From: Flavobacteriales bacterium
Lineage (GTDB): Bacteria > Bacteroidota > Bacteroidia > UBA10329
Length of the DNA stretch: 64,000 bases
Direction: 5' to 3'
NCBI GenBank assembly: GCA_021739625.1
Contig: JAIPBJ010000006.1
Span: 5,334-69,333, forward strand
This document shows, one piece after another, positions 50,763 through 57,585 of this stretch. The first letter of the stretch is position 1. Each line of letters opens with the position of its first letter. The notes beneath the pieces were generated by a model that was not told the DNA's origin, did no database searches, and saw nothing but the letters and a program-made list of their open reading frames with translations. A program made the translations under genes and the position numbers.

Positions 50763-52333
50763 CCCGGCAGCGGTCTGCGCGACCGTTCCTTGATCTCGTT
50801 GGCGAGCATGTCGATGGCACCGTCCTGTGCATCGAGCCGCAGATAGGAGCCCTTGCCCCTGCGGGCGATGCGCTTCATCATCCGCTCGGCATCATCATCG
50901 CCAGCATAGCCTGCCACCGAAAGGATGATGCCCTTGCCGGCATGGTCGGCAGCCATGAGAATGGCATCCTTCTCGGTGAACGATGAGGAGTTGAACATGC
51001 CATCGGTGACCAGAATGAGCTGATTGTTGCCGCCCTCGACCCATTGCGCGGTAAGTTGGGCGTAGGCCTCCTTCATGCCTTTGACCCCACTGGTGTAGCC
51101 TTCGGCCTGGAGGTCGAAAATGAGGTCGATGATGGTCTCGGGCGCGGTGACGGATGTGGGGGGCAGCACGGTGAACACCGCTGCGTTGAACGCCAGCACC
51201 GAGAGCCTATCGATGGGCCGCATCATGCCGATGAGACGCGCGGCCGCTGCCTTGAGCCTGTCGAGCTTGGCATCCTTGTTCATGGACGATGAGACATCGA
51301 GCAGCAGCACGATGTTGTTGGGGCGATAGGTGGCCTCGGCAAATTCGGGGGCGGGCGCCTGCACTGCCGTGGCCGGTGGTGTCTGCTCCCCAACGGACAC
51401 TGGGGCCACTGGGGCAGCGGGCGGTTCGTCAAACTGGTCGTTGACGTTGATGCCAAGGTCGGTCTCCGGTTCCTCCACCTTTTTGGGAGGCTGTGGCACA
51501 GGCCGCACGGGCCCGGCCCATCGGTCTTCGGCCACCGGTTCCTCCATCTGTTCGTTGACGGAGACCCCCATGTCGGCCACCGGTGCTTCGGCCGGCACCC
51601 TGTGCACGGTGACCGCCTGGGCGGGCCGCTCAGGCTGTTGGGCGGGGGGCTGCATTCCGCCCTTCTTCCGGGGTTCGACCATGATGATGACGGTTCCCTG
51701 CCTGCGTTCGAGCGCAATCTCCTCCACGGTGGGCCGATAGTCGGGATGCTCCACCTTGGCTGTGAAGCGGCCCATCTCCAGTCTGGTGCGCACAAGTCCG
51801 CGACTGTCGGTGGTGTAGGTGGCGCGGCTTTCCTCTTTCTTGAACAGCCCGACCGTTGCGCCCACCACCTGCTGGCCCGTTGAGCGGTCCACCACGGTGA
51901 TGGTGCTGGTGCCCGAGGACTGTGCGGGCTGGTCTGCGCTGAATGTGGGGCAGGCGGTGAGGGCGTTGTTGCGGAGCGAGACGATGTTGCCGCGCAGGGT
52001 GAGGCGCTGCGGCCTGTCGGAGGCGTTGGAAAAGAGCTCCACCTCTTTGGAGAAGGGGCCGTTGTCGGCCGTGTAATAGTGGATGGTGACCTCGGCCGTC
52101 TCACCGGGGCCGATGCTCCTGTTGGGAAGGACGACCTGCACATCGCGCCCGAAGTGCTGGGGCAGGAACATGAGTTTTGACGTGCCGGTGTTGGTGAGGC
52201 GGAAGACCGCAGGCGGGCTGTCCCAATCGCGCACGGTGCCGAAGTTGAAGGAGGTGCTCTGCCAGTCTATGCGCTGCCCCGATGCCATGGAGCAGGCCAA
52301 TGTGATGAACAGGGAAAGCAGTGGGCGTCTCAT
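50756..52333 (-). CDS. von Willebrand factor A domain protein with N-terminal beta-sandwich region and central proline-rich linker (probable start at ATG 52333)
   Basis: Signal peptide MRRPLLSLFITLACSMASGQ; C-terminal VWA/MIDAS motif VLLLDVSSSM...LVTDG; low-complexity P/A/E linker. Confidence 0.7.
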   Translation of the reverse strand: MRRPLLSLFITLACSMASGQRIDWQSTSFNFGTVRDWDSPPAVFRLTNTGTSKLMFLPQHFGRDVQVVLPNRSIGPGETAEVTIHYYTADNGPFSKEVELFSNASDRPQRLTLRGNIVSLRNNALTACPTFSADQPAQSSGTSTITVVDRSTGQQVVGATVGLFKKEESRATYTTDSRGLVRTRLEMGRFTAKVEHPDYRPTVEEIALERRQGTVIIMVEPRKKGGMQPPAQQPERPAQAVTVHRVPAEAPVADMGVSVNEQMEEPVAEDRWAGPVRPVPQPPKKVEEPETDLGINVNDQFDEPPAAPVAPVSVGEQTPPATAVQAPAPEFAEATYRPNNIVLLLDVSSSMNKDAKLDRLKAAAARLIGMMRPIDRLSVLAFNAAVFTVLPPTSVTAPETIIDLIFDLQAEGYTSGVKGMKEAYAQLTAQWVEGGNNQLILVTDGMFNSSSFTEKDAILMAADHAGKGIILSVAGYAGDDDAERMMKRIARRGKGSYLRLDAQDGAIDMLANEIKERSRRPLPGQ

Positions 52334-52507
52334 GTGGCTAAAGGTAGCCAACGGGATGGGGGGAGAGGAGACCTGTTTCCCAGCGGAGACACATTCTCCA
52401 GCGGAGGGCTTTATGGAAAAGTGCCGACCCATGCCCTAAGGGCCGCTCCACATTGCTGTGGAACGGTTTTTTTTTGGTACTTGCCGATTCTTACAGTGAA
52501 ACCCTGT

Positions 52508-52738
52508 GATAGGAAATATGGAACACCTGATAGGAGAACTGAAACACCAAATAGGAGAAATGGAACACATGATAGGATATATGGAACATATAATAGGATG
52601 AACAGAACATCTGATAGGAGAAATAAAATGCCTGACAGGATACATGGAACATTTGATAGGATAAATGGAACATACGATAGGAAAGACTGAACATCTGATA
52701 AAAGAAATGGAACACACGTTAGGAGTGATAGAACAGAT
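52508..52738. repeat. Tandem array R3: 11 copies of a 21-bp unit (consensus GATAGGAGAAATGGAACATCT) in the divergent promoter region
   Basis: Direct reading of 11 head-to-tail 21-mers; AT-rich; lies between the start of the VWA gene (-) and the start of the hypothetical gene at 52820 (+). Confidence 0.9.
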
Positions 52739-52819
52739 GTGTTCCATGGCTCCGATCGCATGAGAGACCTGTACGGGCAAATGAATCTCGGAACCGGATA
52801 CCGTTAGAACAATGAATTC

Positions 52820-53467
52820 TTGAAGAACATGATCGACAGACCCTACACCTGCACCGACCCTCAGGCCGTTCAGCGCTGCGAGAGCATGCTGCTGGCCTAT
52901 GACGACCACATGGCCGCCTTCACTGCTCTGGACCCGGATTTCAATGCCACGTTCCGCAACGACTGGCGCGCGGCCATCGATGCCTGTATCGCCTATCCCA
53001 CGGATGAGAGCACGCTCGACCTGCAAAAGGGCCACGGGCAGGTCATTGACCGATGCATGGAACAGTGCCGCATGGCCCTTGCCGACCTGCGCTATTATGC
53101 CAAGAAGGCATACAGCACCAAGGGCCGCTACCGTGTGTTCGGGTTCGAGCGTCACAACAGATTGCGCGGTTCAACGGCCAACTATGCGGTGTTCATGCAC
53201 ACGCAGCATCGGCTGGCGCTGCGCTTTCAGCCCGACCTCGCGGCCAAGGGCATGACCCCTGCGCAGACCGATGCCCTGCTCACCTCTGCCACCGCCCTCT
53301 GGGATGCCGAAGTGGGGCAGGAGACCTTCAAACGCGAACGCATCCTGCACACCGTGGAGCGCAGCGAGGCCTTCCGCCATCTCTGGTCCTTTGTGCAGAG
53401 GTTGCAGCACGCGGCCGATGCCGTTTTTGAGAATGATGCGGTGGGAAGGGGGCTATTTGTGGGATGA
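52820..53467 (+). CDS. Hypothetical Cys-rich protein (215 aa), no recognised family
   Basis: GC-rich ORF with normal codon usage; no signal peptide; several conserved-looking Cys (C..C......C...C). Confidence 0.5.
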   Translation: MKNMIDRPYTCTDPQAVQRCESMLLAYDDHMAAFTALDPDFNATFRNDWRAAIDACIAYPTDESTLDLQKGHGQVIDRCMEQCRMALADLRYYAKKAYSTKGRYRVFGFERHNRLRGSTANYAVFMHTQHRLALRFQPDLAAKGMTPAQTDALLTSATALWDAEVGQETFKRERILHTVERSEAFRHLWSFVQRLQHAADAVFENDAVGRGLFVG

Positions 53468-53589
53468 TCGGGGCCGAGGAACGCGACAGGTATTGGAAGG
53501 TGATCGAGGGGAAGGTGGGGTGAGGGAGGCGTTGCCGCCCCGTCCACGTCCCTTCATAAAGGCTAATTTTGGCCGCAAGCAATAGCATC

Positions 53590-54825
53590 ATGGTCAACCG
53601 CATAGGCATAGGCAATTTCAAGTCGATCGACAAGCTGGAGTTCGAGCTTGGCCGCTTCAACGTGTTCATCGGTGAGAACGGCTGCGGAAAGAGCAACATC
53701 CTTGAGGCAATTGGGATGGGTGCTGCAGCGTCTGCCAATAAACTGGAGAATGAATTTCTGAGCAGTAGGGGCATTCGGGTTACCGATTCTCTTTACATGC
53801 GATCTGCTTTTTCTTCCAAAAACTCTGGGAAGGACATCAGCATTTCAATTCAGATTCGAGATATTGATGTGGAATGGTCGATTTCGAACGATAATCAACC
53901 GTACTCTTCATGGCAACAGGAAGCAGTTGTGAAAGATGGTGTCGATTCGTCCCCTGAAACTGAAGAACCATCCGAAGTTGACAGCCTATTGAAATCATGG
54001 AAGGCACTTGAGACGGACACCTACAATCTTTTAGTTGAAGAAAAAAAAACGGAAGATCCAACTCGTAAGAGAGAAATTGGAAAAGTTCTAAAGCGTGTGG
54101 AGGAATTCTTGCCTCGACTTCAGGAGACGTTTCAGCAAATAATTGCCAAGACGTTACACATACCCTTAGGGCAATTCCAGATTTACTCCCCTGAAAACTC
54201 GTCATTGAGGGCGTTTGAAAGAGAAGGCCAAATAGAGCCGTTGGGTCTCAAAGGCGAAGGGCTCTTCAAACTGCTTAAGACCTTTGCACACACAAATCCT
54301 GAAGCTATCCAACGGATCGCTGAGGAATTGCAGGTCTTCGATTGGTTTGAAAGCTTTCAGTTGCCAGACAAGACAATGTCGGACGAGCGGTACATCAAAG
54401 TGAAGGACCGCTTCCTTGATGATGCGCTGGATCAGTTCGACCAAAGGAGCACCAACGAGGGTTTCCTTTTCGTGCTCTTCTACCTCGCACTGTTTATCAG
54501 CAAGGACACGCCCAAGTTCTTCGCCATCGACAACATAGAGGCTTCGCTAAACCCTAAGCTGTGCAAGGAACTGATCGCCAAGCTCAACCGCCTTTCGGCA
54601 GAGAACAGCAAGCAGGTGATCATGACCACCCACAGCCCGGCCGTGCTCGATGGTCTCGACCTGACGGATGACGAACAGCGGCTGTTCGTGGTGTATCGCA
54701 ACAGTGAGGGGCGCACACGTGTAAGGCGGGTAGAGCCGCCCAAAGTGATGGCAGGCGAGGAGGAAGTGCCGCTGTCAGAGGCGTTCGTGCGCGGTTATCT
54801 CGGAGGCCTCCCTAAGAATTTCTGA
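53590..54825 (+). CDS. AAA_21-type ABC ATPase (OLD/PARIS AriA / AbiLi-like defence ATPase)
   Basis: Walker A GENGCGKSN, ABC-signature-like STNEGF, the AAA_21-diagnostic IDNIEASLNP block (variant of lIDEPEnsLHP) and TTHSP H-loop. A long inserted coiled-coil region lies between the N- and C-terminal halves. TAATTTTG promoter element at 53564-53571. GC is visibly lower than in the flanking genes. Confidence 0.75.
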   Translation: MVNRIGIGNFKSIDKLEFELGRFNVFIGENGCGKSNILEAIGMGAAASANKLENEFLSSRGIRVTDSLYMRSAFSSKNSGKDISISIQIRDIDVEWSISNDNQPYSSWQQEAVVKDGVDSSPETEEPSEVDSLLKSWKALETDTYNLLVEEKKTEDPTRKREIGKVLKRVEEFLPRLQETFQQIIAKTLHIPLGQFQIYSPENSSLRAFEREGQIEPLGLKGEGLFKLLKTFAHTNPEAIQRIAEELQVFDWFESFQLPDKTMSDERYIKVKDRFLDDALDQFDQRSTNEGFLFVLFYLALFISKDTPKFFAIDNIEASLNPKLCKELIAKLNRLSAENSKQVIMTTHSPAVLDGLDLTDDEQRLFVVYRNSEGRTRVRRVEPPKVMAGEEEVPLSEAFVRGYLGGLPKNF

Positions 54826-54828
54826 GCG

Positions 54829-55497
54829 GTGGCAAGGGTGTTCGGCATCATAGCAGAAGGACCGAGTGACATTGCTGTCATCCGGAACATCCTGACAGGC
54901 TATTTCTCAGACCCCGACCTTGAGTTGACCGAGATTCAGCCTGTGAAAAAACAGCCCAGTGGAGAGTATGAGGCGGGCGGCTGGAATCAGGTGCTGGCCT
55001 GCTGCGCCTCTGACCGCCTGCGCGGTGCCTTCCAGTACAATGAAGCAGTGATCATTCAGATAGACACCGATGTCTGTGAAGAGAAGGGCTACGATGTGTC
55101 CAAGCGGGGCGAGAAGGACAAGGTTGTGATGCCTGAGGAACTTATTCTCCGTGTGGAGGAGAAACTGTCCGCCCTCATCGGTACGGAGGTGATGGAGAAG
55201 TTCACTGACCGTATTTTGTTTGCGGTGTGCGTAGATGAACTGGAATGCTGGCTGCTACCGTTGTATTATACCGATAGGAAGAAATCCAAGACTACTGGAT
55301 GCCTGTCCACGCTCAATCAGGCTCTCGGGAAAAAGGAGGATTTCACCATTGATGTGAACAAGAAGAACCACCGATACTACGAGGTCATCTCTGAGCCATA
55401 CCGCAAGAAGCGAAAGGTATTGATGGCTGCCGCTGAGCAGAATGCGAGTTTCAAGGTTTTCATGGACAGGTTGAGCGCGAGGTTCGAAATGCCTTGA
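54829..55497 (+). CDS. TOPRIM-like (OLD-family / DUF4276-DUF4435-like) putative nuclease partner of the ATPase
   Basis: GTG start 4 nt after the ATPase stop (translational coupling). N-terminal IAEGPSD (conserved Glu) and IQIDTDVCEE (DxD) match the TOPRIM catalytic motifs of OLD-family nucleases. 222 aa. Confidence 0.5.
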   Translation: MARVFGIIAEGPSDIAVIRNILTGYFSDPDLELTEIQPVKKQPSGEYEAGGWNQVLACCASDRLRGAFQYNEAVIIQIDTDVCEEKGYDVSKRGEKDKVVMPEELILRVEEKLSALIGTEVMEKFTDRILFAVCVDELECWLLPLYYTDRKKSKTTGCLSTLNQALGKKEDFTIDVNKKNHRYYEVISEPYRKKRKVLMAAAEQNASFKVFMDRLSARFEMP

Positions 55498-55568
55498 CGG
55501 CTTGGAACATTTCTCCCCAGTATCTCCCCATCTTTACACAACCTTAAACAATTCTAACCCAAAGACAG

Positions 55569-56033
55569 ATGAGAACAAGATTCCTTACCATGATAATGAT
55601 TGCCACTGCGCTGGGCTTTGCAGGTTGCGCAGAAGACAATGACGATGACACGGACAATGGCGTTCCGGCCAACACGCTGATCGTGAGTGGCACAAGCATT
55701 TCCATGTCCTCGGTCGTGTGCTCAGAGACCGGCAGCGGAAATGACCTTACCCTCACGGTCTCGGACATCGCTATGGAAAATCTCCTGTATATCCGTTTCC
55801 ATATTGAGCGGCCTGCTGTCACTACCACCATCCCACTGTCGCCCAGTGGTTCAAGTTCAGAGGCGTGGGGCGACTATACGGTGAATGGCAGCATCGAATA
55901 TGAGATAAAGAGCGGGACAGCCACGCTTACCCCACAGTCCAATGGTTCGCTGACCATCACATTCAACAACGTTGTTGCCGAAACGAACAATGATGTTCAG
56001 GCCACGTTGAGTTTCAACGGTACCTGCCTGTAG
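55569..56033 (+). CDS. Hypothetical lipoprotein (154 aa)
   Basis: Lipobox LGFAGC followed by a D-rich linker and a beta-rich domain; no family recognised. Confidence 0.45.
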   Translation: MRTRFLTMIMIATALGFAGCAEDNDDDTDNGVPANTLIVSGTSISMSSVVCSETGSGNDLTLTVSDIAMENLLYIRFHIERPAVTTTIPLSPSGSSSEAWGDYTVNGSIEYEIKSGTATLTPQSNGSLTITFNNVVAETNNDVQATLSFNGTCL

Positions 56034-56065
56034 GACAGTACTGCCCTTTTCTGCATTGAATGATG

Positions 56066-56100
56066 AACGCCTGAGGCCAACGCTTCAGGCGTTTGTTTTT
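56066..56100 (+). terminator. Rho-independent terminator (AACGCCTGAGG...CTTCAGGCGTT + TGTTTTT)
   Basis: Hairpin plus T-run 33 nt after the lipoprotein stop. Confidence 0.55.
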
Positions 56101-56181
56101 GGTGGACAGAGGCTTCATGGCTGTTCACCGTTCACCCCCTGATTCCTGAACCGTTCCCGCCCAGCCCCTACTTTTGCCGCC

Positions 56182-57585
56182 ATGGCAAGAGACAAAGTGG
56201 TGCGCGATGTGGTGATAGAGGAGATGGCGGCCGAGGGCAAGGCGCTGGCCCGCATAGGCGAGGTGGTGACGTTCGTAGAGGGCGTGGTGCCGGGCGATGT
56301 GGTGGATGTGCTGATCACGAAGAAACGCAAGAACTACTGGGAGGGGCGGCCCTACCGCTTCGTGTCGTATTCGGAGAAGCGGGCGGATGCGCGGTGCTGC
56401 TATTTCGGGGTGTGCGGGGGCTGCAAATGGCAGCATCTGGACTATGCGGATCAGCTGGCCTTCAAGGAGAAGCAGGTGAAGGATGCCTTGCAGCGCATAG
56501 GCAAGGTGAGTGTGGGCGAATGGCTGCCCATCATGGGTTCGCAGGAGGTGTTCCACTACCGCAACCGCCTGGATTTCAGCTTTGCCGACAAGCGCTGGCT
56601 CACAAGGGAGGAGGTGGAGAGCGGCACTGATATCGCGGAAAGGCCCGCGCTGGGGTTCCATGTGCCGGGCCGCTGGGACAAGGTGCTGGATGTGGAGGAA
56701 TGCCACCTGCAGCCCGAGCCGAGCAACGCGATCCGCAACCGGGTGCGCGAGCTGGCGATGGGGCACAACATCCCCTTCTTCGACCCGGTGAGCCAGAAGG
56801 GCCACCTGCGCAACCTGACGCTGCGCAACACCACGACAGGGCAGTGGATGCTGCTGCTGTCCGTGGGGAGCGACAGCCCGAAATGGCGCGATGCGGTGCT
56901 TGGACCGATCGTAAGGGAGTTCCCGCAGCTCACGAGTGTGATGTATGTGGTGAACACGAAGGCGAACGACACGATATATGACCTCGACATCAAGGTGTAT
57001 GCGGGCCAGGACCACATTATGGAGGAGATGGAGGGGCTGCGGTTCAAGATCGGGCCGAAATCGTTCTTCCAGACCAACGGCAAGCAGGCCGAGGAGCTGT
57101 ATAAGGTGGCCCGCGATCTTGCTGGACTTACGGGCAATGAAACGGTCTATGACCTCTATACCGGCACGGGCACCATTGCGCTCTACGTGTCGAAGAAGGC
57201 GAAGAAGGTCGTGGGCATCGAGCAGGTGGAGGCCGCGATCGAGGATGCGAAATTGAACGCATCGCTCAACGGCATAGGCCATGCCTCCTTCCACGCGGGC
57301 GACATGAAGGACATCTTCACTCCTGAGTTCATTGCGAGGGAAGGCCGCCCCGATGTGATCATCACCGACCCGCCCCGCGCAGGGATGCATGGCGATGTGG
57401 TGCATCGGCTGCTGGAACTGGCCGTGCCGCGCATCGTCTATGTGAGCTGCAACCCGGCCACGCAGGCCCGCGACCTGCAACTGCTGTCAGCGCAATATGA
57501 TGTGGTGAAGGTGCGTCCCGTGGACATGTTCCCCCACACGCACCACGTGGAGAATGTGGCGCTGCTGGAGCTGAGAGCGCTTTGA
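56182..57585 (+). CDS. rlmD: 23S rRNA (uracil1939-C5)-methyltransferase RlmD (RumA)
   Basis: TRAM domain N-terminus, Fe-S cluster Cys (C...CGGCKWQH), SAM-MTase motifs (DLYTGTGTIAL; DPPRAGM) and catalytic Cys near the C-terminus. Confidence 0.85.
   Translation: MARDKVVRDVVIEEMAAEGKALARIGEVVTFVEGVVPGDVVDVLITKKRKNYWEGRPYRFVSYSEKRADARCCYFGVCGGCKWQHLDYADQLAFKEKQVKDALQRIGKVSVGEWLPIMGSQEVFHYRNRLDFSFADKRWLTREEVESGTDIAERPALGFHVPGRWDKVLDVEECHLQPEPSNAIRNRVRELAMGHNIPFFDPVSQKGHLRNLTLRNTTTGQWMLLLSVGSDSPKWRDAVLGPIVREFPQLTSVMYVVNTKANDTIYDLDIKVYAGQDHIMEEMEGLRFKIGPKSFFQTNGKQAEELYKVARDLAGLTGNETVYDLYTGTGTIALYVSKKAKKVVGIEQVEAAIEDAKLNASLNGIGHASFHAGDMKDIFTPEFIAREGRPDVIITDPPRAGMHGDVVHRLLELAVPRIVYVSCNPATQARDLQLLSAQYDVVKVRPVDMFPHTHHVENVALLELRAL

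Follow-up and report, generated by a model that had tools for sequence, protein, structure and literature searches.

The PADLOC database holds a set of 145 single- or multi-gene phage defence candidates (PDC), which lay within BREX, DISARM, or type I restriction-modification (RM) loci and entered the database untested (Payne et al., bioRxiv 10.1101/2024.01.29.577857); the families of this set are predicted to act in defence because their members are embedded in such loci. The DUF4276 and RloB families have been assigned to the Toprim superfamily; in Menshen, in MADS (as Mad4), and in loci linked to type I RM, their members have been described as the nuclease effectors (PMC12065111). Here, we analysed a two-gene locus consisting of a gene for an ATP-binding cassette (ABC)-type ATPase (gene A) and a gene for a standalone Toprim-like protein (gene B) in a Flavobacteriales bacterium. 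The locus lies in a 64,000-nucleotide (nt) stretch of contig JAIPBJ010000006.1 (assembly GCA_021739625.1, positions 5,334–69,333), and this whole stretch is referred to as the window. The pair was assigned to the candidate family PDC-M31, and we consider it probable that the locus is a two-gene conflict module of the ABC-ATPase plus Toprim kind, directed against phages or mobile elements.

The assignment was based on protein-model matches and same-strand adjacency using PADLOC-DB v2. Protein A matched PDC-M31A with an E-value of 2.5e-76 (255 bits), its residues 1–409 covering positions 1–394 of the 395 in the model. The next-best models were PDC-M25A (1.9e-34), HEC-01A (up to 2.5e-30), and AriA (6.8e-29); A also matched AbiLi (4.5e-22) and mad3 (1.1e-20). 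Protein B matched three PDC-M31B models (2e-12, 2.3e-11, and 2e-06) and no other family at E ≤ 1. By these matches, the pair is a member of PDC-M31, an already catalogued family and not a new type of system. An earlier reading of the letters of the window, termed here the sequence-only reading, had proposed a candidate defence system made of an ATPase and then a Toprim protein encoded by separate genes. This proposal was borne out, with defence as a predicted function, because A matches AAA_15 and AAA_21 and the homologues of B match Toprim-superfamily families; its further suggestion of an unclassified variant or new system gave way to the PDC-M31A and PDC-M31B matches.

Protein A matched the Pfam families AAA_15 (2e-20) and AAA_21 (2.5e-19), both above the cut-offs. 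The AlphaFold model of A, with a predicted local distance difference test score (pLDDT) of 80, showed an ABC head split by a helical hairpin at residues 129–194 (helices 129–153 and 157–194), in agreement with the coiled-coil insertion noticed earlier. Foldseek matched the model to the heads of retron/Septu PtuA, SMC, Rad50, and OLD proteins with E-values of 2e-13 to 1e-10. Walker A, a signature-like motif (S287-x-N289-E-G291), the Walker B Asp, and the H-loop were all present in addition to the head fold and its insert; the previously noticed GENGCGKSN, IDNIEASLNP region, and TTHSP were located at residues 28–36, 310–322, and 346–350, respectively. The signature-like motif, K34, D314, and H348 were all invariant in an alignment of 50 homologues. 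We concluded that A belongs to the SMC/Rad50/OLD type of ABC ATPases and bears a coiled-coil insert.

The catalytic Glu that follows the Walker B Asp in ABC ATPases was absent from A, where D314 is followed by Asn315. In the profile of this region, IDNIDASLNP aligned to IDEIDLHLHP of PtuA-type ATPases and to IDEPEVGLHP of the retron Eco8 OLD protein. The D-N pair was found in 120 of 120 database homologues, 79 of 79 genome loci covering the site, and 13 of 13 plasmid or viral loci; Asn thus occupied the Glu position in all 212 family sequences checked. ABC ATPases in which this Glu is mutated to Gln bind ATP and dimerise, and they hydrolyse ATP barely. Since the Glu was replaced by Asn and the ATP-binding motifs were kept, A is proposed to be a slow or non-hydrolysing switch, not a motor, and we infer by analogy with such mutants that it binds ATP with little turnover. 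The corresponding Walker-B Glu of AriA in PARIS is E393, which was mutated to kill the ATPase activity (PMC11464382).

The insert carrying the modelled hairpin was the variable part of A. Its length ranged from 39 to 97 residues, its column conservation was 18% as compared with 74–82% elsewhere in A, and its mean pairwise identity was 13% as compared with 66% for the core. Between A and its 78%-identical relative in locus L001, the identity was 37% in the insert and 89% in the core. The insert could not be aligned at the DNA level even between relatives whose adjoining gene parts shared 86–91% DNA identity. The parts of PARIS AriA proposed for trigger recognition are likewise poorly conserved (PMC11464382). 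A hypervariable hairpin so sharply delimited is an obvious region in which to seek trigger specificity.

Among 53 aligned sequences of the B family, 43 matched DUF4276 (best 7.4e-07) and 26 matched RloB (best 5.3e-05), and a plasmid homologue with 37% identity is named "DUF4276 family protein" in RefSeq. The AlphaFold model of B (pLDDT 93) was an alpha/beta structure with strands including residues 4–8 and 73–79. The Toprim arrangement, in which strand 1 is followed by a Glu and strand 3 by a DxD, was present in B as E10 and D79-T-D81. Invariant residues in the 53 sequences were E10, D14, D79-T-D81, E139-C-W-L-L-P144, P38, W52, C158, and N205. As E10, D14, D79, and D81 were invariant, IAEGPSD and IQIDTDV, taken as Toprim motifs in the sequence-only reading, are not chance motifs. 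A two-metal site has been described that includes E400/E404 and E508 of Burkholderia (Bp) OLD and E110 of RNase M5 (Schiltz et al., PMC6755086). E139 is a candidate second-metal ligand that may be positioned as E508 and E110 are, a correspondence drawn from motif order and secondary structure and not from superposition. A Foldseek search of the B model against the PDB gave no match at E ≤ 0.001, and a profile search of PDB sequences with the B family gave chance-level matches only. An exhaustive hidden Markov model (HMM) search with the B family yielded 1202 cluster representatives at E ≤ 0.001. The best 150 of these were all standalone proteins of 140–331 amino acids (aa), so that no ATPase-fused form was present among them. 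Taken together, B appears to be a remote relative of DUF4276/RloB and a putative nuclease effector. Separately, three cysteines of B, C59, C140, and C158 (at approximately 55003, 55246, and 55300 of the window), were invariant or nearly so, and C140 lies within the ECWLLP motif.

In NCBI records, a number of cyanobacterial B homologues (e.g., P0008, P0013, P0036, and P0039) are called "phage tail protein", and the copies on viral contigs are near tail-fibre or baseplate genes. The idea that B is a phage structural protein nevertheless deserves hardly any credence: the fold of B is of an alpha/beta, Toprim-like kind and carries a set of acidic catalytic motifs, B is invariably accompanied by the ATPase, the RefSeq plasmid homologue bears the name given above, and the pair had no match among the cultured phage genomes searched. 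In view of its fold, motifs, and constant ATPase pairing, the tail protein name is probably wrong, most likely propagated from the gene neighbourhood.

In a pattern scan with each species represented by one genome, 312 patchily distributed loci were detected among 185,579 species genomes (approximately 0.2%). Eighty of these loci were retrieved; they came from about five phyla (Cyanobacteriota, with many Microcoleus, Bacteroidota, Acidobacteriota, Desulfobacterales, and Armatimonadota). Gene A was directly 5' of gene B in all 80 and also in 13 plasmid or viral loci, and in 82 of the 93 loci the stop codon of A and the start codon of B were at most 3 nt apart or overlapped. The distance matrices of A and B were correlated with r = 0.89, a value reached by none of 500 permutations. 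This correlation indicates co-evolution of the two proteins and is consistent with A and B being inherited together, with no swapping of partners. Clustering of the flanking open reading frames (ORFs) gave no conserved third gene, only lineage synteny in Microcoleus and Armatimonadales.

This distribution bears on whether the pair could serve housekeeping DNA repair or recombination, similar to RecF (an ABC ATPase) with the Toprim protein RecR, or to SbcCD/Rad50-Mre11. The fold of A resembles SMC/Rad50 heads, and A gave weak N-terminal matches to RecF, RecN, Rad50, and SMC models. These matches, however, were far below the curated cut-offs, and the pair is rare, scattered horizontally across phyla, and set in unrelated flanks even where the copies are 80% identical. 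With the hypervariable insert, the missing catalytic Glu, and the carriage on plasmids and phages counted as well, we regard a repair role as very improbable.

The DNA similarity (78–82%) of the window to L001 and L081/L082, the closest relatives, spanned only 53474/53476–55497, with the stop codon of B as its end; in these relatives, the module has flanks unrelated to those in the window. These alignments indicate that the A–B module moves as a discrete unit. At the left edge of the module, a remnant of the end of a 114-aa gene was aligned (Table 1), and it marks the left recombination breakpoint. L001 (4955–8669) and L081 (6897–10669) have a common island of approximately 3.7 kb, in which genes for 311-aa, 118-aa (opposite strand), and 114-aa proteins precede A and B. 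The two versions of the 114-aa protein share 92% identity, and the 311-, 118-, and 114-aa genes are uncharacterised. A search for terminal direct or inverted repeats and other mobility signatures at the module borders gave chance-level short matches only. In an empty-site comparison, the closest metagenome RlmD relatives were 67% identical, with no shared synteny.

More distant pairs (41–49% identity for A and 23–37% for B) were found on plasmids, namely the 5.8-kb Paracoccus plasmid pMARC2, 10–13-kb mobilizable Acinetobacter plasmids, and a Pseudanabaena plasmid with B annotated as "DUF4276 family protein", and on 11 prophage-like viral contigs, where the neighbours included tail-fibre, baseplate, repressor, and methyltransferase genes. 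Relatives carried as cargo on such very small mobilizable plasmids and on prophage-like contigs, the movement as a discrete unit, and the position of most chromosomal copies outside defence islands would also suit a module for stabilisation of the carrier element (addiction- or toxin-antitoxin-like) or for competition between elements, in which B is the toxin, A is the antidote or regulator, and phage defence is not the selected function. We judge this unlikely, since a hypervariable, sensor-like insert is expected for changing external triggers and not for a fixed toxin-antidote pair, and since the closest characterised architectures (OLD, PARIS, Gabija, retron Eco8, and MADS3-4) are all anti-phage. 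Moreover, the window and most loci contain no recognisable mobile element to be stabilised. Stabilisation and defence are compatible roles.

Several points weigh against a defence module. Window B itself matched nothing in Pfam at E ≤ 1, DUF4276 and DUF4435 included, or in NCBIfam. Without the catalytic Glu, A might have no enzymatic activity whatsoever. PDC-M31 is named in no paper text, and no member has been tested and no function, mechanism, or description has been published. The architecturally similar HEC-01 was not protective in its first assay (bioRxiv 10.1101/2024.01.29.577857), and it was protective in a later study. No other genuine defence system was found near the pair in the window. 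Among 124 neighbours of 35 diverse loci, no recurrent partner was found and most were ordinary genes. Finally, the 114-aa gene located directly 5' of A in L001 and L081 has been lost from the window copy.

The last point raises the question of whether the window copy is an inactive relic, in which recombination removed an upstream partner or regulator gene and which is no longer functional or expressed. Only the last 17 or so codons of the 114-aa gene remain, and at least one relative has a disrupted A gene: in L047 (6843–7987, from a Richelia metagenome-assembled genome), the match to A covered only query residues 193–411 and a separate ORF for an N-terminal fragment was present upstream, which suggests a split copy. 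In the window, however, both frames are intact, every family-invariant residue is kept, and the −7 box is still in place between the remnant and the start codon of A. In other phyla, the 114-aa gene is missing upstream of most loci, so that it is not a required component. A relic is therefore quite improbable. Overall, each of the four alternatives considered here is judged to be less likely than a defence module.

As for the neighbours of the 35 loci, only scattered defence-type matches were seen (such as Uma2, DpdF/DrmB-like, and dGTPase), the strong "mad3" matches may be ordinary ABC ATPases, and no reverse transcriptase was found among the most frequent neighbour families. The authors of PADLOC remarked on a lower association of embedded candidates with other defence systems (bioRxiv 10.1101/2024.01.29.577857). 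The mostly ordinary neighbours agree with this remark and give little independent guilt-by-association support.

The features of the locus are listed in Table 1. The product of gene A was 100% identical to P0121, annotated as "AAA family ATPase [Flavobacteriales bacterium]", which has the same start; its length is that of the table, one residue shorter than the 412 aa first read, and an alternative in-frame TTG start at 53569 would yield 418 aa. The GTG start of B was read correctly in the sequence-only reading, and the spacer between the TGA of A and this GTG is 3 nt (GCG), not 4 nt. The claim that both genes are richer in AT than their flanks stood in part: the GC content was 0.42–0.51 in central A and towards the 3' end of B, as compared with approximately 0.58–0.66 in the flanks, and it was 0.55–0.585 towards the 3' end of A and near the start of B, where the claim failed.

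Table 1 Features of the A–B locus (window coordinates)
Feature	Position	Strand	Remarks
Remnant of a 114-aa gene, last ~17 codons (GAEERDRYWKVIEGKVG; end …EERDRYWKVIEGKVG)	53470–53523	+	From alignment to L001 and L081
TAATTTTG, Bacteroidota-type −7 promoter box (TAnnTTTG)	53564–53571	+	18 nt 5' of the ATG of A
Gene A, ABC-type (AAA_15/AAA_21) ATPase	53590–54825	+	411 aa from ATG; PADLOC PDC-M31A
Walker A GENGCGKSN, residues 28–36 (K34)	53671–53697	+	G28, N30, G31, G33, and K34 invariant (50 homologues)
Hypervariable coiled-coil insert of A, residues 109–195	53914–54174	+	Between W108 and F196; proposed trigger-sensing part
Walker B region FFAIDNIEASLNP, residues 310–322	54517–54555	+	D314, then Asn315 at the catalytic Glu position
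H-loop TTHSP, residues 346–350	54625–54639	+	H348 invariant (50-homologue alignment)
Gene B, standalone Toprim-like protein	54829–55497	+	222 aa; GTG start; PADLOC PDC-M31B
E10-G-P-S-D14, Toprim Glu and acidic residue four on	54856–54870	+	Invariant; spacing as in Bp OLD E400/E404
D79-T80-D81, Toprim DxD, end of strand 3	55063–55071	+	Invariant; model strand 73–79
E139-C-W-L-L-P144, start of helix after strand 4	55243–55260	+	Invariant

The promoter element reported approximately 20 nt upstream of A was recovered as the −7 box of Table 1. The aligned box in L001 and L081 was TACCTTTG, in which the TAnnTTTG positions were kept and the nn positions varied. The motif was not enriched in the window overall (18 matches observed, 13.7 expected); about half of its matches lay at most 30 nt upstream of an ORF start, including those of yidC, rlmD, and an ABC transporter gene. 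Boxes within approximately 30 nt 5' of many ORFs were seen, for example, at 1312, 5855 (minus strand), 32376 (minus strand), 48313, 56169, and 57685. The positions of these boxes fit Bacteroidota-type promoters with very short leaders across the window. Searches for sigma-70 promoters and intrinsic terminators gave nothing meaningful, as expected for Bacteroidota. A scan of 51500–56500 against Rfam detected no RNA element, such as the non-coding RNA of a retron that might accompany the weak "retron Eco8 effector" match of A.

The pair is surrounded by yidC, genes for a DUF6438 lipoprotein, a vWA protein, an orphan protein, and a small lipoprotein, rlmD, and an ABC exporter gene; elsewhere in the window, S1, TGT, CTP synthase, and SUF genes are present. 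The window is a housekeeping neighbourhood and not a defence island. Other PADLOC matches in it were to mad2, mad3, and mad8 (1e-11 to 1e-34) and to DndA/SspA. These look like generic housekeeping matches: among the Pfam matches of the window as a whole were ABC_tran, aminotransferase class-V, and methyltransferase, and mad models other than these three gave no match.

Two further observations concern the DNA upstream of the pair. Between the vWA and orphan genes, at 52488–52760, approximately 10–12 tandem copies of a degenerate AT-rich 21-nt unit (TGATAGGAGAAATGGAACACC) were found. The public annotation calls a 74-aa protein with heptad repeats (…SYQMFH…) on the minus strand of this region (52491–52715), and the region had no match in Rfam. 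The orphan gene (52829–53467, plus strand) encodes 212 aa from ATG or 215 aa from a TTG at 52820; it has no Pfam domain and only four homologue clusters (76–89% identity) among 5.8 billion proteins. In locus L177, 21-nt repeats occupy the equivalent place 5' of a homologous orphan gene. As the homology of the orphan gene in L177 stops at its own start and stop codons and the flanks differ, it looks like a small movable unit.

From the observed domain identities, conserved motifs, strict A–B linkage, co-evolution, mobility, and insert variability, a working model can be drawn for the favoured conflict module, in which the A–B complex, recognition of a trigger, the substrate of the nuclease, and a defence phenotype are proposed by analogy with PARIS, OLD, Gabija, and Septu. 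A would dimerise on ATP in the manner of SMC, Rad50, and OLD proteins and hold B inactive in a complex until the hypervariable coiled-coil hairpin recognises an invader-derived trigger; ATP binding, not turnover, would drive the switch. B, presumably coupled to A in translation, would be a small two-metal Toprim nuclease (E10/D14, D79xD81, and E139). On activation it would cut nucleic acid, either DNA or, as in PARIS, tRNA/RNA, and growth of the infected cell would stop.

A more specific proposal can be offered only tentatively: PDC-M31 may work against phages and make up a branch of its own, separate in mechanism, among the OLD-like ATPase-Toprim systems, with a hydrolysis-deficient ABC switch, a hairpin as the trigger receptor, and a minimal 220-aa DUF4276/RloB-type nuclease released or activated on sensing. 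If so, ATP turnover would be dispensable for OLD-like ATPase-Toprim immune sensors. The interest of the locus comes mainly from the family-wide Glu-to-Asn change and the delimited hypervariable insert, and the family-wide loss of Glu constitutes a natural experiment on whether ABC-ATPase immune sensors need hydrolysis or ATP binding alone. PDC-M31 occurs in no fewer than 312 species-level genomes, including many from filamentous cyanobacteria and Bacteroidota, hosts poorly covered by experimental defence work; if its role in defence were confirmed, a characterised system would take the place of a catalogue entry.

Finally, the pair was compared with the known systems. PARIS, composed of the ABC ATPase AriA and the DUF4435 Toprim nuclease AriB, likewise has two genes with the ATPase first and the Toprim effector second, and AriA resembles A both in its coiled-coil insert and in the poor conservation of the putative trigger-binding parts. 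The two differ in that B has 222 aa and AriB is approximately 35 kDa, that B had no AriB, AriAB, or DUF4435 match at E ≤ 1, and that A has Asn315 at the position of the catalytic Walker-B Glu (E393) of AriA. In the case of AbiL, the match of A to AbiLi was much weaker than that to PDC-M31A, and B had no AbiLii match at the same threshold; the pair is thus not PARIS or AbiL, the systems to whose architecture it was likened in the sequence-only reading. HEC-01, the Hma-embedded ABC ATPase and Toprim pair, is likewise split and its HEC-01A models matched A, whereas B had no HEC-01B match and no Hma helicase context was present. MADS3-4 (the ATPase Mad3 and the DUF4276 protein Mad4) shows the same pairing of an ATPase with a small Toprim protein, and DUF4276/RloB are the nearest families of B; unlike MADS, the pair adjoins no methyltransferase or other MADS gene. 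Since B matched none of the nuclease models of PARIS, AbiL, HEC-01, or MADS and the accessory genes were absent, these identities were rejected. Compared with the DUF4276/RloB effectors of Menshen and type I RM loci, the window pair has neither an NsnA/NsnB/ParB context nor RM genes alongside. In the OLD family (P2 Old, class 2 OLD/GajA, and the retron Eco8 effector), the two domains are fused and Walker B is of the DEPE type, whereas in the window the domains are split into two ORFs with a stop codon between them and the catalytic Glu is absent. No feature distinguishing the window copy from PDC-M31 was found; it shares the gene order and adjacency of that family.

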